This document shows positions 11,341-53,588 of a stretch of DNA of 64,000 nt, one piece after another. The stretch's first letter is position 1. Every line of letters begins with the position of its first letter. The DNA is from Chrysomallon squamiferum. Its lineage: Eukaryota > Animalia > Mollusca. Made by a program: the position numbers and the translations under genes. Under the pieces are notes generated by a model that was not told the DNA's origin, made no database searches, and saw nothing but the letters and a program-made list of their open reading frames with translations. The stretch covers positions 62,001 to 126,000 of the forward strand of contig CM022665.1 in NCBI GenBank assembly GCA_012295275.1, read 5' to 3'.

Positions 11341-12160
11341 TAATTTAACTTATTTATTTTTTTATTTTTTTTATTTACCTGAGTACATTATATTTTATTC
11401 TAGTAAAAGTTGACGTAGGCGCAAACATTATTTATTTATTTTTTTATATATATATTTTTTTCTTTTTCTTAAATACAGAGAAAGATGAACTTACGCTCTT
11501 ATTTACATTAGCAACATTTCTGAACCGATTTTTGATTGAAAACTTGATTTCATCTTTCGGGGTTGTAAATCTAAGTCTTCTAAGTTATAGACTGGCACCG
11601 CGTACAGATTCGTTATTTTTCTTATTGCTTTCTGTTTTCTTTTTACTTATATAATAAATAATCAATAATAAAGAATAATTAAATTTCCACTCTCCTCTAT
11701 CTTTTTTAAATTGACTTAAGTTTAAATTTAAAAGTATAACCGAGAGGACCAAGTTCTTTTTTCTTATTACTGAGTTTCCTTTTTCTTTTCTTCTTCTTCC
11801 TTTTTTCTTTTTTCCTTTTTTTATTTTAGAAGATTACAATACAGTTTTGTAAATAGATCTTTTAAATCATATAATTTCAAGTTCTTGGTAATTTTTTGTT
11901 GTGATTTCAGATGGTTAAAATCGTCAAATATCATATGTTATTTTGTTGAATTGTTCAGTACAGTCTAAAATATGTATTGTTTAAATTAGAACCATATATA
12001 TTCACAAGATATTCTCTCCTTGTTATATGTATTGCAGTTTTAACTTGTTTTAAAAACATCGGTTAATTATTCTTAATTTCGACATTTTCCCCAACGAAAA
12101 CATTTTTAAAAGGAAGACGAACAACATAAAATAAACACGTTTCTTGACCAAGTATTAAAA

Positions 12161-19468: not shown

Positions 19469-20068
19469 CTCCTCTTCATTTTGATTCATTTCTTGAACCA
19501 AATCAACAAAACTGATTCCCTTCACTTGTCTGATGAAATCACATTGTGGAAACCATCTGGCGTGTTCCACGTAAGGGTTATCTCCCTGCTTCCAATTTCT
19601 AAGTTCTCCGCCGCAGTAAAAGCAGGACTGCTATCACGTGAATTACCTGTTTATACATGAATGTGCTTGTTCATAACTGTATACATTTCCTGTGACACAT
19701 ACATCCACCAAAACTCTGCTAATACTGGCACACAAATACATACACACTTAGATGAACACACATATGGAAATACAGACATATATACAAAATTAATGTACAA
19801 CGTTGCATCGATCTTTCAAAGATTTCAGATGACCATCAAAATACCCAAATTCAAAATCAGTCTTAAAATTCTGAAGTGTTTAAATCTCTACTGAAACGTC
19901 AGGTAAAATGTCAGAAATAGCAAATTAACATTAAAATGTAAAAGACTTAAAATGTCAATGATAAAAAATATAGAGCAGTCGAAGAAGATTTTCAAATGAT
20001 TATTAAAATGTGAAGATTTCTAAGTAAGCAGCAGTAACACTGACCAGAGAAGAAGAAACCGGCTTCTG
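19469..20068 (-). pseudogene. Third IAP fragment: last 24 nt of large exon, intron, and frameshifted BIR2 exon (19469-19646, 178 nt)
   Basis: Homologous to 23097-23620; agcagtcc vs agcacgtcc is a 1-nt deletion. Confidence 0.85.
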
Positions 20069-20228
20069 GTAGAACCATGCGTTAATGTATTTTTAGATGA
20101 CACTGAATGGAAATATTATGACATCTTCCTTGTTGTAACACGTTTTCTGCATTCCACAATCTCTCGATGAAACTGTCCACTCACACCAAATTAAAATGAA
20201 TTAAAATTCAACACATCGTCATCTTAAA

Positions 20229-20360: not shown

Positions 20361-20539
20361 TTAACACAAGGAAGCTCGCACAATGGCTTGGATTATCTTT
20401 CTACAAAGTGGACATCTTCGCAGTCTGGGCGCACAATCTTCACAGCAACAAAGATGACCGCAGGGCAGGAAAACCATTCTGATCTTGTTTTCAAGACAAA
20501 CTTTGCAGATGATTTCCTCATTATCATCCAGCAAGGAAT
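20361..20539 (-). CDS. Copy B RING exon
   Basis: [59 protein letters not shown]. Confidence 0.9.
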
Positions 20540-20778
20540 CTAATAAATATCAAAGAGTACGTAATAAAAATAATATAATTCTTATACGTTAAATAATGTG
20601 TGTATTTTGTAACAAAAAACAGTTTAAAATAAATCAAATAACTTGTGTATTTTATTACGCATAACATTTGAAACAAATTTTAGATTTTGTCACAAAAGTA
20701 ACTTGACTCTTCACTAGGCTTTACTAATATACAAAAATGTTTTCTGTATTTCTTTCCCTCTTAAAGATATCAAGTATC

Positions 20779-20838: not shown

Positions 20839-21368
20839 AATAAACAGATAAATAGATAAATAATAAACGAATAAAATGTAATACTAGTAATATTAATAAT
20901 AATAGTAACAATAACAACGATAACAAGAAAAATTAGAGCAATAATCATAACAACAACATTACTAATAAAAGTAACAACAAAAGTAATATAAACAATAACA
21001 ACAATAATAGATAAATAAACAAACGAACAAATAATAAATAAACAAGCAAGCAAACAAGCAAATAAACAAACAAATGAACAAATAAATAAAATGTCGTGAA
21101 ATAAAACTACAATATACCTCCAGTTGCAAGTTCTTTATTTCTTGTTGTTTTACTGAATGCGTCACTCTTTCCTTCAGAAACAAGAAATTCAACTGCACGA
21201 AATGAATGAAATAAAATATTAATAATATTAATTCTATTGCCGTGATCTCATTCAAAATCCTGTTTCGTGGGATGTAAAATATTTAATACTTTTATACCAC
21301 AAATATTACGTGTATTTTAAAACAAATGGAACAAAGCAGTTTAAAAAATGAATACTTTGTAGCGAGAA

Positions 21369-21431
<63 letters not shown>

Positions 21432-21644
21432 TTGTATCCTTTGTAACACAAACCTTTGAAAGAATTAGTTGAGTACATAGATAGATAGATAGATAGATAG
21501 ATACACATATAGATAAGAAATTATTCATAAAAGTAACCACGACTCTTGACAATGTTTTATGTATTTAATAAAATGTTGTTCCCTTCCTTCTCCCTAAATT
21601 ATTTCTTTATCAACCAAATGTATCAGGTAATAACAATGATAATC

Positions 21645-21700
<56 letters not shown>

Positions 21701-21912
21701 TTGTATCCTTTGTAACACAAACCTTTGAAAGAATTAGTTGAGTACATAGATAGATAGATAGATAGATAGATACACATATAGATAAGAAATTATTCATAAA
21801 AGTAACCACGACTCTTGACAATGTTTTATGTATTTAATAAAATGTTGTTCCCTTCCTTCTCCTAAATTATTTCTTTATCAACCAAATGTATCAGGTAATA
21901 ACAATGATAATC

Positions 21913-21983
<71 letters not shown>

Positions 21984-22386
21984 TTGCAGTACAATTAACA
22001 ATAGAAACAGAAAAATAAACAAACAAAAATAAAAATAAATAAGAATAGAAAGTAAATGAATAAAATGTAATAATAGTTGTAATAATAATAATAATAATAA
22101 CGACAACAACACAAGAACTAATACAGCAATAGTGATAACAATTATAACAGCAATAACAAGATTATTAAATATATCAATAAGTAAGTAAGTAAATAAATAA
22201 ATAAATAAATAAATAAAGTGTAGTCAAATAAAGCTGCAATATAGCTCCAACTGCATGTTTGTATTTCTTTTTATTTCACTAGGTTCGTCACTACTTTCTT
22301 CAGATACAAGCAATTCATCAACTATACGAACCAAATCAAATAAAATATTCGTAATATTAATTCTACTGAATATATCAGATATCAGA

Positions 22387-22438
<52 letters not shown>

Positions 22439-25400
22439 TATAGTGAAATAAAACTGCAATATACCTTCAGTTACATGGTCTGTGTTTCTTGTTGTTTCGA
22501 TAAATTTGCCATTCTTTTCTTCAGAAACAATGAATTCATCAACTACATGAACAAAATGAAATAAAATATTTATAATATTAATTCTATTGACATGATCTCA
22601 TTTAAAATGTTACTTTGTGGGATGTAAAATAATTAATACTTTTATCTTGACATTAATCTTTGACATTGTGCAGTCTATAGAATCTTGCTGGTAAATCTAG
22701 AATTTTGTTAACGTTAAAACTTACCTTGACGTGTTTTAATTCCAAGACGTTCAAATGTTGGTCGACAATCATTTAAAATATCCATCACTTGGTCATAGTT
22801 AATCTAAAATAAATTTTAAAACTTTATTACTATATTTTCAATAATAATAACGACAAAAAAAAAAATTAATAATAATAATATAATAAAAATTTCTAACTGA
22901 CTAAAATTAATAAATCAATAACTAAATATCTAAATAAATAAATAAATAAATAAGAACAATAATAAAACAAATCTAGAGAGAAAAAATTAGATGTAAAACA
23001 AATTTAAGAAACTTCTGAATTCTTTGTGAAAACAAATACACGAATTTATACAAATTTAATAATTTCGTGGTAAACATAAAAATGTTATCTAGTTACCTCC
23101 TCTTCATTTTCATTCATTTCTTGAACCAAATCGACAAAACTGTCTCCCTTCACTTGTCTGATGAAATCACACTGTGGAAACCATCTGGCGTGTTCCACGT
23201 AAGGGTTATCTCCCTGCATCCAATTTCTAAGTCCTCCGCCGCAGTAAAAGCAGGACGTGCTATCACGTGAATTACCTGTGTATACATGAATGTGCATGTT
23301 CATAATTGTACACGTTTCTTGTGACACCCACGCCAATAACCCTTACATACTGGCACACAAACATACGCAAAATTATGGTACGCTGTTCCATCGACCTTTC
23401 TAAGATGTCAGATGACTATCAAAATGCCCACATTCAAAATCTGTATTAAAAGTTTTACGTCACTACTAAAATGTCAGACATTTTAAATGTATATTGTCAG
23501 TAATTTCAAGTCTTATTTTCAAATGAATATTAAAATATAAATGTCTTAAAATGAATTAAAATGTGAAACGTTTTTAATAAAGAGTAACACTAACCAGAGA
23601 AGAAGAAACCGGCTTCTGCCAGTTCTGTCGGAGACTGGTTGTCAGGATGTGGCCATCGGTGTTCAAAAGACGAAATACGTCGTTGTACGTCGACGTACTC
23701 GGAGTGACGTGGTACATGCAGTGTCGGGGCTGATATAGAGGAGCTTCCAGACAGAAAACCGGACAGCTGAAGGATTGGTAAATTACTGAAACTGAGCTGT
23801 GAAGAACTTTGATGAGAATCATTAGAGGCAACAGCACCACCACTGACAGAACTCTGACAGGTAAAAGAAGGAACTGTAGCGTTAACAGGAAGTGAAACAG
23901 CATTTGTAGCCATATCAATAGATGTAGATGAAAAAATTACTGTAGGCAAACCACCTGTGTTAACAGTAGATGTAGATGTAACAGTGCTTGAGGGTATACT
24001 ACAAATATTACCAGTAAATGTAGGCATACAGCTGGTATTAGTAGCTGATGCTACAGTACTAGTCAAACTAACAGCAGATATGTCAATATTTTCATGACCA
24101 ACAGAGGTAACGATGTCGTCGACGTTATTTCTTGGTGTTTCAGAGACTCCAAACAGTTCATTGTCATTAACTGAACTTTCAGACTCGCTCCGATTACGAA
24201 GTGTGTCACTTTGAATAGCAGAAAATTCCAATACTGGTACAGATAATCTGCCCAGGAATTCTTGTAGTCTCTGCTCATCATTCTCACTTACCCAAATCGG
24301 CTCATTTTCTTCCTCTCCCAGGACAAATCTGCAGCTTGGTGAGATTTGTCTGTGAATTTCAATTGGCTTATCTCCAGGTCTCCAGTGATCATAGCTCTGA
24401 CCACAGCTGAAGCAGACAAGGCGATCACCAATCCCAGTGAAGTAGAATCCAGCAGCTGCAAGACGACTTGGCCAGGCTGAGGTTAGAGAAAATCCTAAGT
24501 AAGTCGCATATCGGTCCCACTCCCTCCTGTATCTGACAGTGTCTGAAGGTTCTGTCTCTAATTCATCATTTCTCGTCATTCCAGTTTGATTTCTCTGGTT
24601 ACCAGGAACGGCTGATTCTGTTTCCGCGAAAACTTCCTGTTGCAGTTCATTCTCATCAGTGTTTTCATGTATTATTTTGTTAGTTTCAACAACATTTGAT
24701 TCTGTTAGGTCACTACTCAGCTGTTCCGATTGATTAGTATCAATATTTGTACCTTCTGATTCATTCACCTCAACAGTTGTATGTTCTGATTCACTGCTAT
24801 GAATTCTTGCAATTTCTGATTCATGTCCATCAACTGCACCTTCTGCAATAATTATTGCAGCTTCTGGTTCATTTATGTCAACTCCTGCAGCATATGATTC
24901 ATTTCTATAAATGGCTGCACCTTCTGATACATTTCTATCAACTACTGCAGATTGTGATTCATTTGCAGCAGCAGTTTCATCGTCCGATTTATATCCGTCA
25001 GTTCTTTCAACTTCCGATTTATTTCTATGAATAGCTGCACATTTTGATTCAATTCCATCAATTACTGAAGCTTCTGGTTCATTTCTATCAATTCTTACAG
25101 CTTGTAATTCATTTCCATCCATGCTTGCAGCTTCTGATTCATTTCCATCAACAGCTGCAGCTCCTGAATCACTTCCATCAACAGTTGCACCTTCTGATTC
25201 AGTTCCACGAACTGCACCTTCTGATTTACTTCCATCATTAGTTGCAGCTTCTGATTCATTTCCATGAATTTCTGCAGCTTCTGATTGATTTTCTTGAATA
25301 CTTGTAGATTCTGATTTATTTAAACCAGGATATGCAACTTCTGATTCATGTCTATCAACAGTTGAATCTGTTGATTCATTTCTATCAGTTGTTGTAGTAT

Positions 25401-25547
25401 CTGATCCATTTTCTTGAACAGTATCAGCTTCTGAACCCACTTCTTTCGAATCAGTTCCGTCTCTTTTTTCTGACTTTCTACCATTACTCACATTATTTGG
25501 ATTAATCTCAAAACTGTTAAGAATGTTCGAATTCTTCACTTTTGAAT
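20361..25547 (-). CDS. IAP (BIRC-family) gene copy B, core exons; open reading frame BIR-BIR-RING
   Basis: Exons 25547-23595, 23275-23097, 22803-22725, 22542-22465, 21192-21118, 20539-20361, all AG/GT, in phase, no stops. Confidence 0.88.
21118..21192 (-). CDS. Copy B symmetric linker exon duplicate (75 nt, phase 1-1)
   Basis: gtgcag|[25 protein letters not shown]|gtatat. Confidence 0.7.
21370..21980. repeat. 269-bp intronic tandem duplication containing (AAT)n and (TAGA)n
   Basis: tttgtatcctttgtaacaca at 21431 and 21700. Confidence 0.85.
22245..22321 (-). pseudogene. Dead duplicate of the linker exon (77 nt, donor GT>CT)
   Basis: tatag|ttgatgaattg...ggag|ctatattgcag vs |gtatattgcag in sister exons. 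Confidence 0.75.
22465..22542 (-). CDS. Copy B symmetric linker exon (78 nt, phase 1-1)
   Basis: tgtag|[26 protein letters not shown]|gtatat. Confidence 0.75.
22725..22803 (-). CDS. Copy B linker exon (79 nt)
   Basis: [26 protein letters not shown]|gtaagt. Confidence 0.8.
23097..23275 (-). CDS. Copy B BIR2 second-half exon (intact)
   Basis: [39 protein letters not shown]. Confidence 0.9.
23595..25547 (-). CDS. Copy B large exon: acidic repeats, BIR1, S/T-rich linker, start of BIR2
   Basis: 649-aa ORF track entry; phase-1 acceptor at 25548-49, donor at 23594. Confidence 0.9.
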
Positions 25548-25633: not shown

Positions 25634-26303
25634 TCTATACATGACTTCGAAATAATTTGAGATTTTTGGTACATGTATACATGTTTACATAAAGAAAAAC
25701 AAAATAATAATAATAAAAAAAAAATTAAAATCGTTCAAAATATAGGTAAGATGTTGAATTAATATTCCGTTTCAGTTCATGTGTAATCTCTATAATTTCA
25801 GAAATATAAATAAATAAAAAATGTGTAAAATTAACAGCAGTTTGCGGATATAGGAAAATAATTATTTATTAAATAACAGTTATTCAGATTAGAAAAATGC
25901 ACAAAGACACAGACAGACAAAGTATCTGATAACGAAACTAGGACATTAATGAAACTCCGAGGTTACATTTTATGATAATTTCTGAAAAGAGGAAATGACT
26001 AAGACAATAACTCGAAATCACTGACAAACATTCACTAATTAAAATACATAATAGATGTTGATCGTATATTAATTGAAAGGTATGAGTGAGGTAAAATCAG
26101 GGTAGGGTCCTGTCAGCTACTGAAATTACGATATATCAATATTATATTGCGTACTAAATAAGTGAATATATAGGTAATTACTTCTTTGCTTCACAGGTAT
26201 TGTTGAAAAAGAATAAAACAGAGTTGTTGACCACATAAAAGTACAGAAGATTAAATATATGACAATCACTTGATAAGTTAGGATCAAGAACGTGTAAAAG
26301 TAC

Positions 26304-26363
26304 CTAAATCCTGAAAGATCCTCTTTATCATGTTCACCTGCTTATCACTTAGCTCTGTAAGCT
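26304..26363 (-). CDS. Candidate micro-exon, 60 nt, phase 1-1
   Basis: catcttacag|(E)LTELSDKQVNMIKRIFQDL g|gtactt. Confidence 0.6.
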
Positions 26364-27044
26364 CTGTAAGATGAAATTAAAACAAACATTTTAAAATTAA
26401 CATAATGAAGTGTTGTTCGTCACTCTGTTATGATTTTACATTAGATATAGGTGATGCAATTTTCACAAATTTTGTTTAAACGGATCAGTTATATTCATCA
26501 TTTATCTCGCCAATCTAGAATCGAGATTATGAGTTGTAAGGATGAATTGTTCTAAGCATCCACAGACGACATCGAGATAGAAATTTCAGCGTTTTCCTCA
26601 GATGAGTACGCGTTTCACTTAAAATACAAAATGCAAAAAGTGTTTCTCCGTATCTGCAAATAACTGTCAGAAACAGAGCTTACGGATCTATTAAATGGTT
26701 CTCCTTTTGATAATAATAACAATAATAAAGAAAGAAAGAAAGAAAGAAAGAAAGAAATGAACAAAAATAAATAAAATAAAATTAGAAAAAACAAAAAAAC
26801 AAGAACTTTACGAATCCCCTCAAGTCAGACATTACGGAGGGTGACTATGCAAATTACGTTTTAATAAAACGAGCGCGACGTGTTACATAAAGCATGACTC
26901 TAATCTAAGAAGGTTTAATCATGTAATAATATATTTATTTTTTACTACTTTCTGTGTTCTTTCATCATCTTCCAAAATTACTAAATTTACAAAATTAAAA
27001 AAACAAAAACAAAAAAAAAAAAAAAAAAATTAAATTGTACATAC

Positions 27045-27113
27045 CTTTTTCTACTATATTTAAAGGTGAACAAGTTTTGTGTAGATTGATTTCCATTACT
27101 TTATCGGTTAAAC
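27045..27113 (-). CDS. Candidate micro-exon, 69 nt, phase 1-1
   Basis: aaattacag|(G)LTDKVMEINLHKTCSPLNIVEK g|gtatgt. Confidence 0.7.
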
Positions 27114-27658
27114 CTGTAATTTCAGAAATATAGATAAACATAAAATGTGTAAAATTAACATCAGCTAACGTTTATAAGAAAGTAATTATTTTTCACCTAT
27201 TACATTCATGTAGTAGTCATTCAGATTATAAAAATGCACGAAGTCACAGACAGACAAACTGTTTGAAAACGAAACCAGGACATTAATGAAACTCCACGCT
27301 TATCTTTTGGGACAATTTTTAAAGCCGGGAAATAAAGGAGACATTTGTCTGACTTGCAATAATTCGAAATCACTGACAAACGTTCACTGATTAAAATAAA
27401 CAATAGATGTTGATATTCGTATATTAATTGAAAGGTAGGAGTGAGGTAAAATCAGGGTAGGGTCCTGTCAGCTACTGAAATTACAATATATAAATATTAT
27501 ATTGCATACTAAATAAGTGAATGTATAGGTAATTACTTCTTTGCTTCACAGGTATTTTTTAAAAAGAACAAAACAGAGTTGTTGACCACACAAAAGTACA
27601 GAAGATTAAATATATGACAATCACTTTATAAGTTAAGTTCAAGAACGTGTAAAAGTAC

Positions 27659-27718
27659 CTAAATCCTGAAAGATCCTCTTTATCATGTTCACCTGCTTAT
27701 CACTTAGCTCTGTAAGCT
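27659..27718 (-). CDS. Candidate micro-exon, 60 nt, identical to 26304-26363
   Basis: Part of a ~0.9 kb direct duplication offset by 1355 bp. Confidence 0.6.
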
Positions 27719-28950
27719 CTGTAAGATGAAATTAAAACAAACATTTTAAAATTAACATAATGAAGTGTTGTTCGTCACTCTGTTATGATTTTACATTAGA
27801 TATAGGTGATGCAATTTTCACAAATTTTGTTTAAAAGGATCAGTTATATTCATCATTTATCTCGCCAATCTAGAATCGAGATTATGAGTTGTAAGGATGA
27901 ATTGTTCTAAGCATCCACAGACGACATCGAGATAGAAATTTCAGCGTTTTCCTTAGATGAGTACGCGTTTCACTTTGAATACAAAATGCAAAAAGCGTTT
28001 CTCCGTATCTGCAAATAACTGTCAGAAACAGAGCTTACGGATCTATTAAATGGTTCTCTTTTTAATAATAATAACAATAATAAAGAAAGAAATAAAGAAA
28101 GAAAGAAATGAACAAAATTAAATAAAATAAAATTAGAAATAACACAAAAAAACAAGAACTTTACGAATCCCCTCAAGTCAGACATTACGGAGGGTGACTA
28201 TGCAAATTGCGTTTTAATAAAACGAGCTTCACGTGTTACATAAAGTATGACACTAAACTAAGAATGTTTAATCACGTAATAATATAGTAATTTACCTTTC
28301 TGTCCAGTAATATCACTGCCTTTATATGCTAGTAAAATTTATTTACAACTTTTCACTAATATAAATCACTAAAACTAATACGAATGCTCATATTTGTTTT
28401 GCTTGATTTTCTTTCCTTTCTGCAAGTTTTCACTTTGACAAATTGATCAACATTTGCTGAGAAGACAGTGAATACTAACCCATATGAAACTTTAAAAACT
28501 GCTGTGTTTAAAATATTTTTTGTTAGTTATGGCTAACTAAATGTTTCAACGAATAGGTTCGTATATTGTTACTGATGTAAATGAAGTTTATCAAAATAAT
28601 CAACTATTCAGTGCTGACATTAAGCAGCTACATCCACATGTGACTGCTGAATTAATAAAACTGTAAGATATACATTTCCTACAAATTTAATAATATGTGT
28701 GTATAAGTAAGATGCATTTAAAGAAGTAGAGTTCAGCTGAAAACAAAATAGAGAATTAAAAATCCTCAAGTGAGACATCGTTCCAAAGCACGAATTAGAC
28801 AGTTATTTTCTTGTTAAAAACTTAATTGATGGTGAATTTACCGAACTAAGAGTCTGAGCTGATATCATTCAGTTTATAAATTACAACTAACCAAACACAA
28901 TTTTGTGTTTTTTCATTACAGCTGAGAAATCTTTAAACTAACAAATTTAC

Positions 28951-29049
28951 CTGAAAGTTTGATGTCTGTAAATGATAATGGTGCTGCAGTGTTGTACAGG
29001 TTTATCTTCAAATTTGATAATTTATTTTCCGTCAGCTGATATCTTTGTT
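28951..29049 (-). CDS. Candidate micro-exon, 99 nt, phase 1-1
   Basis: tattacag|QRYQLTENKLSNLKINLYNTAAPLSFTDIKLS g|gtaaat. Confidence 0.68.
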
Positions 29050-29384
29050 CTGTAATACTCAATTCGACAAGGAGACAACGGAGTCTTTTGATATGAATTA
29101 ATCCTGTGCAAAATAATTAAATACACTGTTATCTACCTTTCCAGGAAATATTTTAGTCGGTTGTTTAAAGTAGAAGTTTCGGTTATTCAAACAGAGAAAG
29201 TATAAACCAAAGACAAATACTAAAAATATGTATTACTGGTATTAGTAAGTAATTAAATACTCTTTAAATACCGATGGAAGTAAATAATTAGAGTTTAGCT
29301 TAGAATATCAAAGTAACACACGTTCACCAGAAACTACTTTGATTCATCAGAACTGCAAAAGAAATTTAGGAAATAATTACGTAC

Positions 29385-29423
29385 GGATAGTAGTCCAGTG
29401 ATTCTGATTCATGAGAAATTTAT
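29385..29423 (-). CDS. Candidate micro-exon, 39 nt, phase 1-1
   Basis: ctattttcag|(D)KFLMNQNHWTTI c|gtacgt (weaker donor). Confidence 0.55.
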
Positions 29424-29789
29424 CTGAAAATAGAAATGTAGTTTCAGTAACATCAATAAAGATAAACTTTTCTAGCATTGTCAGAAATTTCCAATGCCTT
29501 TATATTGCAGTAAAATGTATTTACAACATTTCAGTAATATAAATCTGTAATACTAATACGAATGCTCATATTTGTTTTCATTGATTTTCTTTCCTTACTG
29601 CAGGTTTTCACTTTGACACACTGATAAACATTTGTTGAGAAGATAATGAATACAACCGTATATGAGACTTAAATACCGATGTAAGTAAATAATTAGAGTT
29701 TAGCTTAAAATATCAAACTAACACCCGTTCACCAGAAACTAAGTTGATTCATCATAACTGCAAAAGAAATTTAGGAAATAAGTACGTAC

Positions 29790-29828
29790 CATAATCTCTA
29801 TAGTCTTCCTCTACGCCAAGAAATGGAT
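29790..29828 (-). CDS. Candidate micro-exon, 39 nt, phase 1-1
   Basis: ctattttcag|(D)PFLGVEEDYRDY g|gtacgt. Confidence 0.65.
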
Positions 29829-31134
29829 CTGAAAATAGAAATGTAGTTTCAGTAACATCGATAAAGATAAACTTTTCTAGCATTGTCAGAAATTTCCAAT
29901 GCCTTTATATTGCAGTAAAATGTATTTACAACATTTCAGTAATATAAATCAGTAATACTAATACGAATGCTCATATTTGTTTTCATTGATTTTCTTTCCT
30001 TACTGCAAGTTTTCTCTTTGACAAACTGATAAACATTAGTTGAGAAGACAATGAATACAACCTTATATGAGACTTTTAAAACTGCTGTTTTTAAAAGTCT
30101 TTGAGTTGTTAGTGACACGTAACTAACTGTTTCAACGAAAAGTTGAGAAAACAATTTTATAAAAATGATATGCTTCTAAACGTTTTTTAGAACTTTGTCC
30201 ATAACCTATTTTGTAACTACTCATACGTAGTCGTATTTTAATACGCAAAATCAAAACAGAAAAATAAACTCATACCTTCAGTCGTGAAAGTAAAGTAACA
30301 GGGATTTATATGTGTTAATTATTACATACTTGGATAAATATATTGGTTGCAAATCATGTAGATAAGAATTATCAGTGTGTTTATTGTATATTACTATGAC
30401 ATCTCTGGTTGCAATGTCGTAATGTAAATCAAAGTTAATTCTAGTGTAGTCTGACTGTGTGTTCTTCTAAATTTTAAACTACAAAGCTGTATTGAAAGTT
30501 TGTATGTTGTTACTGATGTAAATGAAGTTTGTCATAAATATGAAGAATTGAAAGGCGATATTCAGTGCTGGCATTAAGCAGCTATATCCACATGTGACTG
30601 CTGAATTAAAAAAAACTGTAAGATTTACATTTACTATAAATTTAATAATATGTGTGTATAAGTAAGATGCATTTAAAGTAGCAGAGATCAGATGAAAACA
30701 AAATAGACATTTAAAAAGAAATTTTTTAGACTCCTCAATTGAGACATCGTTCCAAAGCACGAATTAGACAGTTATGTTCTTCTTAAAAAGTTAACTGCTG
30801 CTGAATTTACTGAGCTAGCAGTTTGATCTGATATCCTTCACTTAAAAAATTACAACTTATCAAACAAAATTTTGTGTTCTTTCATTACATTTCAGAAACT
30901 TTAAACTAAGCATATTAACTAACGATACTATTATGCCTTTAATAACTGTATATGCATATAAAGTTCAGATTCTCTTGTCTCTAATAATAAAATAGAATAA
31001 ATTATAAACGAAAGACAAATGACTAATATATGCAAATTATTAGATTTCTGTTTAAAAACAACAAAGAGACACCCATACACAAGAAGGTATGCTTTATCAT
31101 AGCTAGAGAAGAAAGTTAACAAATAATTATGTAC

Positions 31135-31197
31135 CTGAATTACACGTCTGTTTCACTGTTTTTGATTTGGAAATGGCTGTCAGCTTTCGTTGTACAC
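31135..31197 (-). CDS. Candidate micro-exon, 63 nt, diverged member of the array exon family
   Basis: aaattacag|(G)VQRKLTAISKSKTVKQTCNS g|gtacat. Confidence 0.65.
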
Positions 31198-31332
31198 CTG
31201 TAATTTCAGTAACATAAATAAAGATAAACATTTCTAGCATAGTTGAGTATTATCACTGGTTTTTTATGCCAGTAAAAATTATGTACAACTTTTGACTAAT
31301 ATAAATCAGTAAAACTAATAAGAATGCTCATA

Positions 31333-32078
31333 CAGCGGTATTTCGAGTTACGAGTGCTCCAACTGACGATTTTTTCGAGTTACGAGCAGCTGCCCGGTCG
31401 ATTTTTTGCTTTCAGTTGCGAGCCAAAATCCGAGTTACGAGCGAGATTCAGATATGTCTCCGCTAGTTGGCGCAACGAACAACACAACATCCGCCGAGAA
31501 TCCCGCGACTTACTCATTTACTTCACGTGGTTACCTAACCGTGGAAGCATTTCTGTTGTGTTGTACTCGCGTTTTGTGCAATATTTTGCCAAAGTTAGTG
31601 CAAAGGTCAGTGCTGAGACGAAGAAGCGGATGATGTCCATTGAATTAAAGTACGAAATCATAGAAAAGCATGAGCGAGGTTTGCGTGTGGTCAACGTGGC
31701 TAGACAGTACATTATGTACCATACGATATGCACCATAATGAAGCAGAAGGAGTCGATAAAGGCTGTAAGTCCAGCCAAAGGCCTTAAAATAATTTCTAAG
31801 CTGAGGACCTCTGACCATGAAAAGATGGAGAAACGCTAACCCTGTCCACTTTCCAAAACCAATTTATTTCTTTACATTCTCTTTTATGTTGTTTTTATAC
31901 AATATTTGTCATTTATACATACATTTTTTTATTTGGAGTGGTTTTCGGGGGTTGAGGCTGAAACGGATTAATAGTATTTCAATTAATTTCATTTGGGGAA
32001 ATTGATTTGATATACGAGCAGTTTGAGTTACCAGCTCGGTCACGGAACGAATTAAACTCGTAAGACAAGGCACCACTG
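31333..32078 (+). mobile_element. Non-autonomous Tigger/pogo-like DNA transposon
   Basis: TA flanks; imperfect TIRs CAGCGGTATTTCGAGTTACGAG / CTCGTAAGACAAGGCACCACTG; remnant CENP-B-type HTH KKRMMSIELKYEIIEKHERGLRVVNVARQY..TICTIMKQKESIK; no DDD domain. Confidence 0.85.
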
Positions 32079-32560: not shown

Positions 32561-32620
32561 CTGCATACCTTGTATAACCCTGTTGATTGTCCGGACAATT
32601 AGTGATCAAGTTCCTTAACC
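32561..32620 (-). CDS. Candidate micro-exon, 60 nt, phase 1-1
   Basis: ttttttcag|(G)LRNLITNCPDNQQGYTRYA g|gtatta; a competing internal donor aag|gtatgc exists. Confidence 0.55.
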
Positions 32621-33815: not shown

Positions 33816-33866
33816 CTGCATTACCCAGGTGTTTCATCCAACTATTTACTGATCCATGTGTTGCAC
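33816..33866 (-). CDS. Candidate micro-exon, 51 nt, phase 1-1
   Basis: aaattacag|(G)ATHGSVNSWMKHLGNA g|gtaaat. Confidence 0.68.
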
Positions 33867-34607: not shown

Positions 34608-34694
34608 TTGAATTACTCCTGCGTTTCATTAATTCTAATACTTTACAACACTTCAGTGTCAATCGACTCTTTACAGAAACGTCTTTTTGTAGAT
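34608..34694 (-). pseudogene. Micro-exon with mutated acceptor (87 nt, open frame, AG>AC)
   Basis: aaattacac|LQKDVSVKSRLTLKCCKVLELMKRRSNS a|gtacat. Confidence 0.55.
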
Positions 34695-35708
34695 GTGTAA
34701 TTTCAGTAACATAAAAAAACAAAAACATTCATCGCATTGCCGAGTATAATTAGTAAATATTCATACTCAGTCTATATTAATACGTAAAATCAAAACACAA
34801 AAATAAAACGTCGTACCATCAGAAACGGAAGTAAAGTAACAACAATTTATAGGTTAATTATTACACACTTGGATAAATACATTCGTTGCAAATCATGTAG
34901 ATAAGAATTATCTGTTCTGACTGTCACTGTGACACCTTTGTTTGCAATGTTGTAATATAAATCAAAGTTAATTCTAGCGTAGTCTGACTGCGCGTTCTGC
35001 TAAATTGTAAACTACAAAGCTGTACTGAAAGTTTGTATGTTATTACTCATGTAAATGAAGCTTCTCATAAATATCAACAATTCAAAGGCGATATTCAGTG
35101 CTAACATTAAGCAGCTACATCCACATGTCACTGCTGAATTAAAAACACTGTAAGATAAACATTTTCTATAAATTTCGAAAGATGTGAATGTATAATTAAG
35201 GTAATTTTAGGTATCAGAGTTGACTTGAAAACAAAATAGACAATGAAAAAGAAACCCTTAAGACTCCTCAAGTGAGACATCGTTCCAAAGCCCGATTTAG
35301 ACAGTTGTGTTCTTCTTAAAAAGCTTAATTGCTGCTGAATTTACTGAGCTAGCAGTTTGATGTGATATCCTTCTGTTTATAAATTACAACTTATCAAACA
35401 AAATTTTGTGTTCTTTCATTACATCTGAGAAATCTTTAAACTAGGCATATTTACTAAAGACAACCTTATGCTTTTTATAATTTTATATGTATACAAAGTT
35501 CAGATTGTCTTCTCTACTAAAAACATAGAATAAACTATAAACGAAAGCCAAATGCTAAACATATGTATTAATGGTGTTAATAATTAATTTTCACTAATGT
35601 AAGTAAATAATTAGATTTCTGTTTAAAGACAACAAAGTGGCACCCATACACAAGAATGTAATTTGCTTTATCATAGCTAGAGAAGAAAGTTAACAAATAA
35701 TTATGTAC

Positions 35709-38700
35709 CTGAATTAGACCTCTGTTCCACTCTTTCTGATTTGGAAATGGCTGTCGACTGTAGTTGTACTTCTGTAATTTAAGTAACGGAAATAAAGTTA
35801 AATATTTCTAGCATAGCTGAGTAGTATCAATGGCTATTTATGCCAGTAAACATTATATACCACTTTTCACTAATATAAATCACTAAACTAATACGAATTT
35901 TCATATTTGTTTTGCTTGTTTCTCTTTCTTAGCTGGATGTTTTCACTTCGACAACCTCATAAACATTTCCTGGGAAGACAGTGAATACTAACCCATGTGA
36001 GACTGTAAAAACTGCTGTCTTTAAAAGTTTTTGTGTTGTTAGTTACAGCTTACTAAATGTTTCACCGAAAAGTGCGAAAACCACTTTGTAACAAAGATAT
36101 ACTTCTAAACGTTTTCTAGAAGTATTTAGTAACTACTCATAAGTAGTCAATATTAATACGTAAAATCAAACATCAGACACTGAAGTAAAGTAACAACAAT
36201 TTATAGGTTAATTATTACACACTTGGATAAATATATTCGTTGCAAATCATGTAGATAAGAATTATCTGTTCTGACTGTCACTGTGACACCTCTGTTTGCA
36301 ATGTTGTAATGGAAATCAAAGTTAATTCTAGCGTAGTCTGACTGCGCGTTCTGCTAAATTGTAAACTACAAAGCTGTACTGAAAGTTTGTATGTTATTAC
36401 TCATGTAAATGAAGCTTCTCATAAATATCAACAATTCAAAGGCGATATTCAGTCCTGACATTAAGCAGCTACATCCACATGTCACTGCTGAATTAAAAAC
36501 ACTGTAAGATATACATTTTCTATAAATTTCGAAAGATGTGAATGTATAATTAAGGTAATTTTAGGTATCAGAGTTGACTTGAAAAGAAAATAGACAATGA
36601 AAAAGAAACCCTTAAGACTCCTCAAGTGAGACATCGTTCCAAAGCCCGATTTAGACAGTTGTGTTCTTCTTAAAAAGCTTAATTGCTGCTGAATTTACTG
36701 AGCTAGCAGTTTGATGTGATATCCTTCTGTTTATAAATTACAACTTATCAAACAAAATTTTGTGTTCTTTCATTACATCTGAGAAATCTTTAAACTAGGC
36801 ATATTTACTAAAGACAACCTTATGTTTTTCATAATTTTATATGTATACAAAGTTCAGATTGTCTTCTCTACTAAAAACATAGAATAAACTATAAACGAAA
36901 GCCAAATGCTAAACATATGCATTAATGGTGTTAATAATTAATTTTGACTAATATATGCAAATAATTAGATTTCTGTTTAAAGACAACAAAGTGGCACCCA
37001 TACACAAGAATGTAATTTGCTTTATCATAGCTAGAGAAGAAAGTTAACAAATAATTATGTACCTGAATTAGACCTCTGTTCCACTCTTTCTGATTTGGAA
37101 ATGGCTGTCGACTGTAGTTGTACTTCTGTAATTTAAGTAACGTAAATAAAGTTAAATATTTCTAGCATAGCTGAGTAGTATCAATGGCTATTTATGCCAG
37201 TAAACATTATATACCACTTTTCACTAATATAAATCACTAAACTAATACGAATTTTCATATTTGTTTTGCTTGTTTCTCTTTCTTAGCTGGATGTTTTCAC
37301 TTCGACAACCTCATAAACATTTCCTGGGAAGACAGTGAATACTAACCCATGTGAGACTGTAAAAACTGCTGTCTTTAAAAGTTTTTGTGTTGTTAGTTAC
37401 AGCTTACTAAATGTTTCACCGAAAAAGTGCGAAAACCACTTTGTAACAAAGATATACTTCTAAACGTTTTCTAGAAGTATTTAGTAACTACTCATAAGTA
37501 GTCAATATTAATACGTAAAATCAAACATCAGACACTGAAGTAAAGTAACAACAATTTATAGGTTAATTATTACACACTTGGATAAATATATTCGTTGCAA
37601 ATCATGTAGATAAGAATTATCTGTTCTGACTGTCACTGTGACACCTCTGTTTGCAATGTTGTAATGGAAATCAAAGTTAATTCTAGCGTAGTCTGACTGC
37701 GCGTTCTGCTAAATTGTAAACTACAAGGCTGTACTCAAAGATTTTATATTATTACTCATGTAAATGAAGCTTCTCATAAATATCAACAATTCAAAGGCGA
37801 TATTCAGTGCTGACATTAAGCAGCTACATCCACATGTCACTGCTGAATTAAAAACACTGTAAGATATACATTTTCTATAAATTTCGAAAGACGTGAATGT
37901 ATAATTAAGGTAATTTTAGGTATCAGAGTTGACTTGAAAACAAAATAGAAAGTGAAAAAGAAACCCTTAAGACTCCTCAAGTGAGACATCGTTCCAAAGC
38001 CCGATTTAGACAGTTGTGTTCTTCTTAAAAAGCTTAATTGCTGCTGAATTTACTGAGCTAGCAGTTTGATGTGATGTCCTTCTGTTTATAAATTACAACT
38101 TATCAAACAAAATTTTGTGTTCTTTCATTACATCTGAGAAATCTTTAAACTAGGCATATTAACTAAAGACAACCTTATGTTTTTTTATAATTTTATATGT
38201 ATACAAAGTTCAGATTGTCTTCTCTACTAAAAACATAGAATAAACTATAAACGAAAGCCAAATGCTAAACATATGTATTAATGGTGTTAATAATTAATTT
38301 TCACTAATGTAAGTAAATAATTAGATTTCTGTTTAAAGACAACAAAGTGGCACCCATACACAAGAATGTAATTTGCTTTATCATAGCTAGAGAAGAAAGT
38401 TAACAAATAATTATGTACCTGAATTAGACCTCTGTTCCACTCTTTCTGATTTGGAAATGGCTGTCGACTGTAGTTGTACTTCTGTAATTTAAGTAACGGA
38501 AATAAAGTTAAATATTTCTAGCATAGCTGAGTAGTATCAATGGCTATTTATGCCAGTAAACATTATATACCACTTTTCACTAATATAAATCACTAAACTA
38601 ATACGAATTTTCATATTTGTTTTGCTTGTTTCTCTTTCTTAGCTGGATGTTTTCACTTCGACAACCTCATAAACATTTCCTGGGAAGACAGTGAATACTA

Positions 38701-41213
38701 ACCCATGTGAGACTGTAAAAACTGCTGTCTTTAAAAGTTTTTGTGTTGTTAGTTACAGCTTACTAAATGTTTCACCGAAAAAGTGCGAAAACCACTTTGT
38801 AACAAAGATATACTTCTAAACGTTTTCTAGAAGTATTTAGTAACTACTCATAAGTAGTCAATATTAATACGTAAAATCAAACATCAGACACTGAAGTAAA
38901 GTAACAACAATTTATAGGTTAATTATTACACAGTTGGATAAATATATTCGTTGCAAATCATGTAGATAAGAATTATCTGTTCTGACTGTCACTGTGACAC
39001 CTCTGTTTGCAATGTTGTAATGGAAATCAAAGTTAATTCTAGCGTAGTTTGACTGCGCGTTCTGCTAAATTGTAAACTACAAAGCTGTACTGAAAGTTTG
39101 TATGTTATTACTCATGTAAATGAAGCTTCTCATAAATATCAACAATTCAAAGGCGATATTCAGTGCTGACATTAAGCAGCTACATCCACATGTCACTGCT
39201 GAATTAAAAACACTGTAAGATATACATTTTCTATAAATTTCGAAAGATGTGAATGTATAATTAAGGTAATTTTAGGTATCAGAGTTGACTTGAAAACAAA
39301 ATAGACAATGAAAAAGAAACCCTTAAGACTCCTCAAGTGAGACATCGTTCCAAAGCCCGATTTAGACAGTTGTGTTCTTCTTCTTAAAAGCTTAATTGCT
39401 GCTGAATTTACTGAGCTAGCAGTTTGATGTGATATCCTTCTGTTTATAAATTACAACTTATCAAACAAAATTTTGTGTTCTTTCATTACATCTGAGAAAA
39501 ATCTTAAACTAGGCATATTTACTAAAGACAACCTTATGCTTTTTATAATTTTATATGTATACAAAGTTCAGATTGTCTTCTCTACTAAAAACATAGAATA
39601 AACTATAAACGAAAGCCAAATGCTAAACATATGCATTAATGGTGTTAATAATTAATTTTGACTAATATATGCAAATAATTAGATTTCTGTTTAAAGACAA
39701 CAAAGTGGCACCCATACACAAGAATGTAATTTGCTTTATCATAGCTAGAGAAGAAAGTTAACAAATAATTATGTACCTGAATTAGACCTCTGTTCCACTC
39801 TTTCTGATTTGGAAATGGCTGTCGACTGTAGTTGTACTTCTGTAATTTAAGTAACGTAAATAAAGTTAAATATTTCTAGCATACCTGAGTAGTATCAATG
39901 GCTATTTATGCCAGTAAACATTATATACCACTTTTCACTAATATAAATCACTAAACTAATACGAATTTTCATATTTGTTTTGCTTGTTTCTCTTTCTTAG
40001 CTGGATGTTTTCACTTCGACAACCTCATAAACATTTCCTGGGAAGACAGTGAATACTAACCCATGTGAGACTGTAAAAACTGCTGTCTTTAAAAGTTTTT
40101 GTGTTGTTAGTTACAGCTTACTAAATGTTTCACCGAAAAAGTGCGAAAACAACTTTGTAACAAAGATATACTTCTAAACGTTTTCTAGAAGTATGTACCT
40201 AACTAGAAGTATTTAGTAACTACTAATACATAGTCAATATTAATACGTAAAATCAAACATCAGACATGGAAGTAAAGTAACAACAATTTATAGGTTAATT
40301 ATTACACAGTTGGATAAATATATTCGTTGCAAATCATGTAGATAAGAATTATCTGTTCTGACTGTCACTGTGACACCTCTGTTTGCAATGTTGTAATGGA
40401 AATCAAAGTTAATTCTAGCGTAGTTTGACTGCGCGTTCTGCTAAATTGTAAACTACAAAGCTGTACTGAAAGTTTGTATGTTATTACTCATGTAAATGAA
40501 GCTTCTCATAAATATCAACAATTCAAAGGCGATATTCAGTGCTGACATTAAGCAGCTACATCCACATGTCACTGCTGAATTAAAAACACTGTAAGATATA
40601 CATTTTCTATAAATTTCGAAAGATGTGAATGTATAATTAAGGTAATTTTAGGTATCAGAGTTGACTTGAAAACAAAATAGACAATGAAAAAGAAACCCTT
40701 AAGACTCCTCAAGTGAGACATCGTTCCAAAGCCCGATTTAGACAGTTGTGTTCTTCTTAAAAAGCTTAATTGCTGCTGAATTTACTGAGCTAGCAGTTTG
40801 ATGTGATATCCTTCTGTTTATAAATTACAACTTATCAAACAAAATTTTGTGTTCTTTCATTACATCTGAGAAAAATTTTAAACTAGGCATATTAACTAAA
40901 GACAACCTTATGTTTTTTATAATTTTATATGTATACAAAGTTCAGATTGTCTTCTCTACTAAAAACATAGAATAAACTATAAACGAAAGCCAAATGCTAA
41001 ACATATGTATTAATGGTGTTAATAATTAATTTTGACTAATATAAGTAAATAATTAGATTTCTGTTTAAAGACAACAAAGTGGCACCCATACACAAGAATG
41101 TAATTTGCTTTATCATAGCTAGAAAAGAAAGTTAACAAATAATTATGTACCTGAATTAGACCTCTGTTCCACTCTTTCTGATTTGGAAATGGCTGTCGAC
41201 TGTAGTTGTACAT
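35709..41213 (-). CDS. Five 63-nt candidate micro-exons, type A (35709-35771, 37063-37125, 38419-38481, 39777-39839, 41151-41213)
   Basis: ttaaattacag|(E/D)VQLQSTAISKSERVEQRSNS g|gtacat, once per unit. Confidence 0.62.
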
Positions 41214-42524
41214 CTGTAATTTAAGTAACGTAAATAAAGATTAAATATTTCTAGCATAGCTGAGTAGTATCAATGGCTATTTATGCCAGTAAACATTATA
41301 TACCACTTTTCACTAATATAAATCACTAAACTAATACGAATTTTCATATTTGTTTTGCTTGTTTCTCTTTCTTAGCTGGATGTTTTCACTTCGACAACCT
41401 CATAAAACATTTCCTGGGAAGACAGTGAATACTAACCCATGTGAGACTGTAAAACTGCTGTCTTTAAAAAAAAAGACAATTTGTGTTGTTAGTTACAGCT
41501 TACTAAATGTTTCACCGAAAAAGTGCGAAAACCACTTTGTAACAAAGATATACTTCTAAACGTTTTCTAGAAGTATTTAACTAGAAGTAACTTACTAACT
41601 ACTCATACGTAGTCAATATTAATACGTAAAATCAAACATCAGACATGGAAGTAAAGTAACAACAATTTATAGGTTTATTATAACCTGGATAAATACATTC
41701 GTTGCAAATCATGTAGATAAGAATTATCTCTTCAGTCTGTCACTATGACATCTCTGTTTGGAATGTTGTAATGTAAATCAAAGTTAATTCTAGTGTAGTC
41801 TGACTGCGCGTTCTGCTAAACTGTAAACTACAAAGCTGTATTGAAAGTTTGTATATTATTACTCATGTAAATGAAGCTTGTCATAAATATCAACAATTCA
41901 AAGGCGATATTCAGTGCTGACATTAAGCAGCTACATTCACATGCCACTGCTGAATTAAAAACACTGTAAGATATACATTTACTATCAATTTCGAAACATG
42001 TGAATGTATAATTAAGGTAATTTTAGGTATCAGAGTTGACTTGAAAACAAAATAGACAATGAAAAACAAACCCTTAAGACTCCTCAACTGAGACATCGTT
42101 CCAAAGCCCGATTTGGACAGTTGTGTTCTTCTTAAAAAGCTTAATTGCTGCTGAATTTTCTGAGCTAGCAGTTTGATGTTATATCCTTCTGTTTATAAAT
42201 TACAACTTATCAAACAAAATTTTGTGTTCTTTCATTACATCTGAGAAAACTTTAAACCAAGCATATTAACTAAAGACCATCTTATGATTTTTATAATTTT
42301 ATATGTATACATAGTTCCGATTGTCTTCTCTATTAATAATATAGAGTAAACTATAAACGAAAGCCAAATGCTAAACATATGTATTAATTGTGTTAATAAT
42401 TAATTTTGACTAATATATGCAAATAATTAGATTTCTGTTTAAAGACAACAAATTGGCACCCATGCACAAGAATGTAATTTGCTTTATCATAGCTAGAAAA
42501 GAAAGTTAACAAGTAATTATGTAC

Positions 42525-45500
42525 CTGAATTACACCTCTGTTCCACTCTTTCTGATTTGGAAATGGCTGTCGGCTGTCGTTGTACATCTGTAATTTAAGT
42601 AACGTAAATAAAGATAAACATTTCTAGCATAGTTGAGTAGTATCAACGGCTATTTATGCCAGTAAAAATTATATACCACTTTTCACTAATATAAATCACT
42701 AAACTAATACGAATTTTCATATTTGTTTTGCTTGTTTCTCTTTCTTAGCTGGATGTTTTCACTTCGACAACCTCATAAACATTTCCTGGGAAGACAGTGA
42801 ATACTACCCCATGTGAGACTGTAAAAACTGCTGTCTTTAAAAGATTTTGTGTTGTTAGTTACAGCTTACTAAATGTTTCACCGAAAAAGTGCGAAAACCA
42901 CTTTGTAACAAAATATACTTCTAAACGTTTTCTAGAAGTATCTACCTAACTAGAAGTATTTACTAACTACTCATACGTAGTCAATATTAATACGTAAAAT
43001 CAAACATCAGACATGGAAGTAAAGTAACAACAATTTATAGGTTTATTATAACCTGGATAAATACATTCGTTGCAAATCATGTAGAAAAGAATTATCTCTT
43101 CAGTCTGTCACTATGACATCTCTGTTTGGAATGTTGTAATGTAAATCAAAGTTAATTCTAGTGTAGTCTGACTGCGCGTTCTGCTAAACTGTAAACTACA
43201 AAGCTGTATTGAAAGTTTGTATATTATTACTCATGTAAATGAAGCTTGTCATAAATATCAACAATTCAAAGGCGATATTCAGTGCTGACATTAAGCAGCT
43301 ACATTCACATGCCACTGCTGAATTAAAAACACTGTAAGATATACATTTACTATCAATTTCGAAACATGTGAATGTATAATTAAGGTAATTTTAGGTATCA
43401 GAGTTGACTTGAAAACAAAATAGACAATGAAAAAGAAACCCTTAAGACTCCTCAACTGAGACATCGTTCCAAAGCCCGATTTGGACAGTTGTGTTCTTCT
43501 TAAAAAGCTTAATTGCTGCTGAATTTACTGAGCTAGCAGTTTGATGTGATATCCTTCTGTTTATAAATTACAACTTATCAAACAAAATTTTGTGTTCTTT
43601 CATTACGTCTGAGAAAACTTTAAACCAAGCATATTAACTAAATACCATCTTATGATTTTTATAATTTTATATGTATACATAGTTCCGATTGTCTTCTCTA
43701 TTAATAATATAGAATAAACTACAAACGAAAGCCAAATGCTAAACATATGTATTAATTGTGTTAATAATTAATTTTGACTAATATATGCAAATTATTAGAT
43801 TTCTGTTTAAAGACAACAAATTGGCACCCATGCACAAGAATGTAATTTGCTTTATCATAGCTAGAAAAGAAAGTTAACAAGTAATTATGTACCTGAATTA
43901 CACCTCTGTTCCACTCTTTCTGATTTGGAAATGGCTGTCGGCTGTCGTTGTACATCTGTAATTTAAGTAACGTAAATAAAGATAAACATTTCTAGCATAG
44001 TTGAGTAGTATCAACGGCTATTTAAGCCAGTACAAATTATATACCACTTTTCACTAATATAAATCACTAAACTAATACGAATTTTCATATTTGTTTTGCT
44101 TGTTTCTCTTTCTTAGCTGGATGTTTTCACTTCGACAACCTCATAAACATTTCCTGGGAAGACAGTGAATACTACCCCATGTGAGACTGTAAAAACTGCT
44201 GTCTTTAAAAGTTTTTCTGTTGTTAGTTACAGCTTACTAAATGTTTCACCGAAAAAGTGCGAAAACCACTTTGTAACAAAGATATACTTCTAAACGTTTT
44301 CTAGAAGTATCTACCTAACTAGAAGTATTTACTAACTACTCATACGTAGTCAATATTAATACGTAAAATCAAACATCAGACATGGAAGTAAAGTAACAAC
44401 AATTTATAGGTTTATTATAACCTGGATAAATACATTCGTTGCAAATCATGTAGATAAGAATTATCTCTTCAGTCTGTCACTATGACATCTCTGTTTGGAA
44501 TGTTGTAATGTAAATCAAAGTTAATTCTAGTGTAGTCTGACTGCGCGTTCTGCTAAACTGTAAACTACAAAGCTGTATTGAAAGTTTGTATATTATTACT
44601 CATGTAAATGAAGCTTGTCATAAATATCAACAATTCAAAGGCGATATTCAGTGCTGACATTAAGCAGCTACATTCACATGCCACTGCTGAATTAAAAACA
44701 CTGTAAGATATACATTTACTATCAATTTCCAAACATGTGAATGTATAATTAAGGTAATTTTAGGTATCAGAGTTGACTTGAAAACAAAATAGACAATGAA
44801 AAAAAACCCTTAAGACTCCTCAACTGAGACATCGTTCCAAAGCCCGATTTGGACAGTTGTGTTCTTCTTAAAAAGCTTAATTGCTGCTGAATTTACTGAG
44901 CTAGCAGTTTGATGTGATATCCTTCTGTTTATAAATTACAACTTATCAAACAAAATTTTGTGTTCTTTCATTACATCTGAGAAAACTTTAAACCAAGCAT
45001 ATTAACTAAATACCATCTTATGATTTTTATAATTTTATATGTATACATAGTTCCGATTGTCTTCTCTATTAATAATATAGAATAAACTATAAACGAAAGC
45101 CAAATGCTAAACATATGTATTAATTGTGTTAATAATTAATTTTGACTAATATATGCAAATTATTAGATTTCTGTTTAAAGACAACAAATTGGCACCCATG
45201 CACAAGAATGTAATTTGCTTTATCATAGCTAGAAAAGAAAGTTAACAAGTAATTATGTACCTGAATTACACCTCTGTTCCACTCTTTCTGATTTGGAAAT
45301 GGCTGTCGGCTGTCGTTGTACATCTGTAATTTAAGTAACGTAAATAAAGATAAACATTTCTAGCATAGTTGAGTAGTATCAACGGCTATTTATGCCAGTA
45401 AAAATTATATACCACTTTTCACTAATATAAATCACTAAACTAATACGAATTTTCATATTTGTTTTGCTTGTTTCTCTTTCTTAGCTGGATGTTTTCACTT

Positions 45501-49423: not shown

Positions 49424-50078
49424 CTGTAATTTCAGTAACGTAGATAAAGATAAACATTTCTAGCATAGTTGAGTAGTATCAACGGCTATTTATGCCAGTA
49501 AAAATTATATACCACTTTTCACTAATATAAATCACTAAACTAATACGAATGTTCATATTTGTTTTTCTTGATTTTCTTTCTTAGCTGGATGTTTTAACTT
49601 TGACAAACTAATAAACATTTTTTGAGAAGACAATGACTACTACCCCACATGAGACTTTAAAGACTGCTGTCTTTAAAAAAATGTTGTGCTGTTAGTTACA
49701 GCTTAATAAATGTTTCAGCGAAAAAGTGAGAAAACCTCTTTGTAACAAAGATATACTTCTAAACGTTTTCTAGAAGTATCTAACTGACCAGAAGTATTTA
49801 CTAACTACTCATACGTAGTCAATATTAATACGTAAAATCAAAACACAAACATAAAACGTCGTACCATCAGACATGGAAGTAAAGTAACAACAATTTATGG
49901 GTTAATTATTACACACTTGGATAAATATATTCGTTGGAAATCACGTAGATAAGAATTATCGGTTCAGTCTGTCACTAACACGTTTGTCCTGAGATCATCA
50001 GTTTATAGATTACAACTTATCAACAAAATGCTGTGTACTTTCATTACCGCTGAGAAATCATAAAACCAACAAATTTAC

Positions 50079-52964: not shown

Positions 52965-52998
<34 letters not shown>

Positions 52999-53540: not shown

Positions 53541-53588
<48 letters not shown>

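Follow-up and report, generated by a model that had tools for sequence, protein, structure and literature searches.

The 64-kb stretch of Chrysomallon squamiferum DNA analysed here, called the window below, has a GC content of ~30% and carries on its minus strand a gene that, to judge from its domains, is a BIR-BIR-RING inhibitor of apoptosis (IAP). Self-comparison of the window reveals a family of repeated units filling 25.8-52.3 kb, upstream of this gene. The features of the gene and of the predicted mini-exons on the same strand are as follows.

20361-20539, minus strand: last IAP exon, RING finger (PF13920, E=4.5e-15 at 20364-20540)
23097-23275, minus strand: IAP exon with the second half of BIR2 (PF00653, E=6e-13)
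23595-25547, minus strand: IAP big exon with a phase-1 acceptor, acidic 30-nt repeats, BIR1 and the start of BIR2 (PF00653, E=7e-24)
26304-27718, minus strand: three candidate exons of 60 nt (27659-27718), 69 nt (27045-27113) and 60 nt (26304-26363), the last before the IAP big exon
28951-29049, minus strand: candidate exon of 99 nt, sharing 65% identity with the 84-nt exon below
31135-31197, minus strand: 63-nt candidate exon, separated from the types of the 11-unit array by 7-11 non-synonymous changes, with 0 synonymous
32561-32620, minus strand: 60-nt candidate exon; the frame-blind scan picked an earlier donor, giving 52 nt
33816-33866, minus strand: 51-nt candidate exon of the same flank family, its slot 51% identical to 31135-31197
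35709-49423, minus strand: 11 tandem units of ~1360 bp, each with a 63-nt phase-1 candidate exon, in three sequence types; exons better conserved than flanks
50079-52223, minus strand: three candidate exons with a second flank type, of 84 nt (52140-52223), 78 nt (51442-51519) and 78 nt (50079-50156)

The nearest named protein is a XIAP-like protein of Gigantopelta aegis (54% identity, covering 29% of the query). When protein collections were searched for a form derived from transcripts, the best matches were below 55% identity, none of them from C. squamiferum. The initial annotation had likened the pattern to that of toxin and immune gene families; the gene is not a toxin, and the BIR and RING exons make the array probably that of an IAP. 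Since the big exon opens in phase 1, the predicted mini-exons could be spliced to it in frame. An inverted IAP paralogue lies at 665-5250 on the plus strand; it is 97% identical over 665-2542, has a TGA stop in its BIR2 exon and is not directly preceded by a mini-exon array within the window. A third IAP copy at 19470-20070 (minus strand) is fragmentary, with a 1-nt deletion in its BIR2 exon by reading. Between BIR2 and RING, at 21130-22540 (minus strand), there are three related short exon-like segments (~22465-22540, 22250-22320 and 21120-21195), which suggests exon duplication in the 3' linker as well.

In all, 23 symmetric phase-1 mini-exons of 39-99 nt are predicted upstream of the IAP gene, two of them the 39-nt segments described below. 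This list comes from a scan retaining only open candidates with a length divisible by three (3n), which is circular for claims on frame, and a frame-blind scan was added for that reason. On the gene strand, a 3n length and an open phase-1 frame are found in 20 of its 24 candidates, with 0/20 open in phase 2; the figure for control strands and regions is 1/11. Counted as independent length classes, the array gives 7/10 vs 1/11 in the controls (p=0.008), a result that is supportive rather than clean, as the motifs were written after the array had been seen. Three sister units are broken (50728-50780, 34609-34694 and 25733-25790). An exon-slot unit with an acceptor and no donor sits just before the big exon in both IAP paralogues, at 25733-25790 (minus strand) and 881-938 (plus strand).

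The ~1360-bp array extends over 34747-49977 with identity up to 97%. Its two main exon types are arranged in blocks, six units at the 5' end and four at the 3' end with one intermediate between them, a layout as would be expected from unequal crossing-over. No start codon or start exon for the mini-exons was found in the window. Twelve mini-exon peptides gave nothing significant against the N-terminus of the Gigantopelta protein P0001 (best p=0.09), 152 other proteins or the acidic repeats of the IAP gene itself.

A further family of intron-like units, also duplicated, occupies 52300-64000 (minus strand), with copies at 1-660, 5970-6800, 8390-8790 and 10300-11750. Many of its units contain an AG...GT-bounded segment of ~23 nt, variously decayed; these segments may be 5' non-coding exons of the IAP gene. 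At 31330-32000 there is an insertion with short internal repeats and an ORF of 179 aa (31300-31836) that resembles a DNA-transposon or transposase fragment but has no Pfam match. An assembly gap of 200 N lies at 63290-63489.

The 405-bp duplication and its divergent block

Within the unit family, Tandem Repeats Finder reports a repeat at 29264-30075 with a period of 405 and 91% identity, and the flanks of this pair are themselves part of the family.

~29264-29668 and ~29669-30075, no strand: copies 1 and 2 of the 405-bp tandem duplication, with a short TTAAA microhomology at the junction
29385-29423, minus strand: candidate 39-nt phase-1 exon of copy 1, (D)KFLMNQNHWTTI; acceptor as in copy 2, weak donor CC/GTACGT
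29790-29828, minus strand: candidate 39-nt phase-1 exon of copy 2, (D)PFLGVEEDYRDY; acceptor TTTTCAG, donor TG/GTACGT
50728-50780, minus strand: nearest relative unit, flanks 51/60 and 56/60 identical to those of copy 1; broken, with AT as donor and a length that is not 3n

An ungapped alignment of the copies at offset 405 contains 39 mismatches in 407 positions, and 23 of these fall inside the minus-strand AG...GT-bounded segments of 39 nt (29385-29423 vs 29790-29828). These segments are thus identical at 16/39 positions, the flanks at 352/368 (96%), with 8/121 mismatches on the donor side and 8/247 on the acceptor side, three of the latter within the first 180 nt. The concentration is highly significant (Fisher p=3e-17), and in 20,000 random placements of the 39 mismatches none put 23 in one 39-nt window, the maximum being 14. 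The initial annotation had reported a duplication of about this length, approximate flank counts of 3/180 and 8/120, the 16/39 match and the preservation of length, phase and open frame with both peptides, and all of these observations stand. The donor edge of the block is exact, and at the acceptor edge seven of the first nine nt are still identical. The last 30 nt match at 9/30, which is near chance (shuffle mean 10/39).

Phase 1 is the sole frame of the three that is open in both copies, where it reads KFLMNQNHWTTI in copy 1 and PFLGVEEDYRDY in copy 2; by chance, 41% and 34% of shuffles are open in this phase. Copy 2 passes the frame-blind scan, and copy 1 fails it because of its CC/GT donor. 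Codon positions 1, 2 and 3 differ at 9/13, 7/13 and 7/13, over a background of 4%, a distribution unlike the one that selected point changes would leave. In the flanks both copies carry derived substitutions, a pattern as after ordinary duplication. The homogenisation of introns by gene conversion proposed earlier is therefore not needed: the junction is that of a single duplication, and each copy has its own derived flank changes. The copies are more alike over the acceptor-proximal 180 nt than over the remaining flank (3/180 vs 13/188, p=0.02), which hints at tracts. In the first 72 nt past the donor, copy 1 sides with the nearest outgroup at 5/6 differences, a non-significant excess that hints at a tract of foreign origin in copy 2.

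Divergence confined to exons, the pattern named in the initial annotation, does not extend to the whole array. Across the 11 tandem units, 4/63 exon columns vary vs 102/428 and 62/404 in the flanks, and introns at 93-98% identity hold for the 405-bp pair and not for the unit family at large. Recent pairs are free of slot divergence (51519/50156, 97%; 27718/26363, 100%). Exon slots fall into two classes, 83-100% or ~27-65% identical. Low-identity slots recur between conserved flanks: the values for flank, slot and flank are 51/60, 29/60 and 56/60 for copy 1 vs the 50728-50780 (50786) unit, and 49/60, 32/63 and 41/60 for the 33866 vs 31197 units. Together with the pair 52223 vs 51519, these are older pairs with slots of ~45-51% between better-kept flanks, although the intron next to splice sites is often constrained anyway. 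The pair 27113 vs 9412 (plus strand) was discarded as a case of exon-confined divergence, its breakpoint lying inside the exon (93%/62%/41%).

Parts of the stretch are represented in nine sequencing runs, in every case by contigs; two of the nine are RNA runs, each with 0.16 of the words. Four runs were compared over 28200-31330, a region that stops short of the join to the BIR exon, with 32 of 411 pieces listed. The RNA runs gave 15 and 14 contigs, mostly 86-95% alike, on intron sequence, and their depth over 29460-29879 is zero. Among the 15 RNA joints listed (nine more are unlisted), none falls at a 39-nt splice site, which speaks neither for nor against splicing. The joints 31130-31193 and 29383-31199 were considered as new exon variants and rejected: as judged from the alignment, both are accounted for by units of the 33866 and 50786 types already present in the window. 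Likewise, 39 letters at 28929-29957 considered as an exon turned out to be intron. Contigs from all four runs match 29934-30558 at 91-93%, the best paralogue in the window at 78-81%, and run X2 has a contig with 27 differences (depth 284) beside one with 1 difference (depth 87). Contigs closer than the in-window paralogues point to further copies or strongly diverged alleles outside the window, hence to possible donors.

Origin of the divergent segment

The two 39-nt segments differ in what they retain of their ancestry. Copy 1 resembles the 63-nt exon type, yet in a different reading frame; local alignments give p=0.001 and 0.004 among 13 exon comparisons, and p=0.02 against the broken 50728-50780 unit. 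In the ancestral frame copy 1 reads ISHESESLDYY, matching ISKSERVE, but this reading is preceded by a stop; the same frame gives REMSQGKKCCWAL in the sister unit. Because the ancestral-frame reading of copy 1 begins with a stop, its phase-1 peptide appears to be a shifted frame. The segment of copy 2 aligns with none of the 13 exons, and its last 30 nt have no related sequence elsewhere in the window. With copy 1 keeping the ancestral similarity and copy 2 keeping none past the first 9 nt, the divergence is one-sided and block-like. We infer that both 39-nt exons probably arose from an exon that had undergone a frameshift and then regained a 3n length, so that the frame would be constrained and the peptide would not.

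Our preferred reading, to which we give an even chance, is that an exon cassette was replaced by ectopic recombination via look-alike introns and that frame-keeping variants were retained. In this reading the recent 405-bp duplication of an intron-exon unit came first; the last 30 nt of copy 2 would then have been replaced in one step through recombination with a related unit elsewhere in the genome. The look-alike introns would have acted as homology arms, through which exons of differing age and sequence may be exchanged between units, as in the SmPoMuc exon-2 repeats discussed below. The mini-exon units would be spliced and translated as a variable N-terminal region, and selection would retain variants that are 3n and open in phase 1, being indifferent to the peptide or favouring its change. 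Cassette-like replacement had been named in the initial annotation as one of two options, and of the readings considered it best fits the block-like, one-sided change. It has one informative pair behind it, and replacement from a donor pushes back by one step the question of why the slots diverge. The weak donor and shifted frame of copy 1, the broken state of the nearest relative unit and the chance frequency of open phase-1 frames weigh against it.

A donor for either 39-mer was not found in the window (both strands, ungapped and local searches); the best ungapped match is 24/39 and the longest exact match 11-12 nt. A 12-nt match of copy 1 to the acidic repeats of the big exon was set aside as borderline chance, 1-2 of 40 shuffles being as good. 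A scan of metagenomes for the acceptor motif returned 0 matches.

A first alternative, the leading idea of the initial annotation and in our view unlikely, is that the duplication is old and the exon evolved fast in place, by point changes and compensating frameshifts under diversifying selection, with gene conversion keeping the introns alike. The divergence of copy 1 from the 50728-50780 unit, raised yet still alignable, fits this course, as does the greater likeness of the 180 nt by the acceptor. The X2 contig across the tandem junction, with as many differences as expected for a copy 2 end joined to a copy 1 start, would mean exchange between the copies. Changes in the alignable mini-exons are non-synonymous in 13 of 13 cases (p ~0.02), and the big exon departs from the inverted paralogue by 29 non-synonymous changes against 3 synonymous ones (pN/pS 2.8, p=0.048), a test weakened by the BIR2 stop in that paralogue. 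Diversifying selection, as claimed initially, thus has some weak and indirect signal elsewhere in the gene, but it is not demonstrable for the 39-nt pair, since synonymous positions are as scrambled as the others. Third positions being saturated speaks against change in place, as does the absence from copy 2 of any trace of the ancestral core; moreover, conversion would have to span both flanks up to the splice sites and yet miss 30 nt.

It is likewise unlikely that the segments are unspliced relics in which a one-off repair, by insertion-deletion with DNA from elsewhere, replaced ~30 nt and ended by chance at the old donor. The ancestral acceptor TTACAG is altered in both copies, the donor of copy 1 is weak, with a C at -1 unlike the donors of the IAP core exons, and the three sister units named above are broken, all of which a relic would explain. 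Against this stand the equal length, the exact stop at GT, the strong new acceptor 12 nt on, and phase 1 as the only open frame; copy 2 also passes the frame-blind scan, and the pattern recurs in other slots. In short-range template-switch mutation clusters, according to the accessible parts of PMC5453318 and PMC9435742, DNA close by is copied as its reverse complement to form the new segment. Such a local source was tested for the 39-mers and rejected, inverted local matches reaching 7 nt at best (p=0.93 and 0.97).

An assembly artefact, either two alleles of one unit set in tandem or a local misjoin, is very unlikely: the region is rich in repeats, and the sole listed contig across the junction, from X2, which may be the source sample, has 12 differences from the window, but that contig spans the junction ungapped with 63 and 110 letters on either side, another X2 contig of the shared acceptor flank ends like an assembly-graph fork at 29422, immediately ahead of the first difference between the copies, the flank substitutions are derived in both copies, and the exon-confined difference stays real even if allelic. 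The 12 differences equal the 5+7 expected for the end of copy 2 joined to the start of copy 1, a tentative assignment made from the difference count.

Related systems and implications

The closest architecture, as far as the accessible part of the report goes, is that of the SmPoMuc exon-2 repeats of Schistosoma mansoni (PMC2576457), a 5' variable region of tandem units of ~1 kb, each with one short exon and flanking intron. The introns are >93% alike and exon types differ between clusters; the authors propose that conversion is limited to introns, that exons are under selection and that they are exchanged by ectopic recombination. Tandem units with one short predicted exon and flanking intron occur in the snail array too, and introns above 93% with differing exons are found in the 405-bp pair (352/368 vs 16/39) and not in the 11-unit array. 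The snail host gene is a BIR-BIR-RING IAP and no mucin, so it may work alike without being a family member. Its exons, predicted from DNA alone, measure 39-99 nt with many types in one array, in contrast to the 27 nt described for SmPoMuc, and microsatellite spacers between the 405-bp copies are absent. The same exon type in another cluster, which marks a donor in SmPoMuc, does not occur in the window; closer relatives of the units exist outside it.

In the accelerated segment switch in exons (ASSET) of snake venom genes, a short exon segment has turned unrelated between introns >85% alike, by a mechanism on which the accessible part of PMC2711939 reports no agreement. The 405-bp pair shows the same combination. 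As described there, most ASSET segments are internal to exons that encode secreted toxins with a cysteine frame, whereas the snail switch ends at the donor and the host is an intracellular-type E3 ligase IAP, not a venom protein, and thus not a member of this class. The micro-exon genes of schistosomes contain series of short symmetric exons whose skipping leaves the frame intact, and they change fast non-synonymously (PMC8293314, accessible part). Runs of short symmetric predicted exons are likewise found in the snail array; the schistosome exons are given as ≤36 bp and belong to secreted proteins, unlike the 39-99 nt ahead of BIR and RING domains here. For the Argiope MaSp2 silk genes, the accessible part of PMC9779670 describes tandem exon-intron units with near-identical introns as sites for unequal exchange. 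The 11-unit array of 1360 bp matches such iterated homogenised-intron units, but the silk exons are homogenised too, and that text mentions no unrelated exon in a shared slot.

Expansion of IAPs is known in molluscs, segmental duplication being prominent in Gigantopelta and alternative splicing in oysters, according to the parts of PMC13159474, PMC8917759 and PMC7895826 that were accessible. Three XIAP-like paralogues of Gigantopelta aegis (P0001, P0154, P0048) have variable N-termini with block-like gains and losses, followed by a low-complexity repeat, BIR, linker, BIR and RING, the last absent from P0048. The mini-exon peptides of the snail have no significant similarity to the N-terminus of P0001, a comparison made at the protein level alone.

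A mini-exon array in an IAP gene was not found described in the literature covered, mostly the main texts of open papers; the proposed process is of a known kind, and its setting in an intracellular IAP appears to be new. The present case captures a segment switch at just 4% divergence between the copies; its borders are exact and a donor pool is likely, which makes the donor hypothesis testable by one genome search. Since ASSET-type switches are, in the source cited above, without an agreed mechanism, the 405-bp pair is of value for their study. In a further-reaching version, which we regard as doubtful, the N-terminus of the IAP E3 ligase would be diversified by cassettes, with two dozen skippable in-frame exons and slots refilled from a genome-wide pool of units, leading to individual-level variation in an intracellular apoptosis regulator, variation of a type described to date for surface proteins of parasites and for venoms. 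In general, replacement of mini-exons would give the IAP protein a changeable front end. If true, exon-cassette variation, seen in secreted proteins of parasites and in venom proteins, would extend to an intracellular regulator of cell death, in a mollusc group with expanded IAPs.
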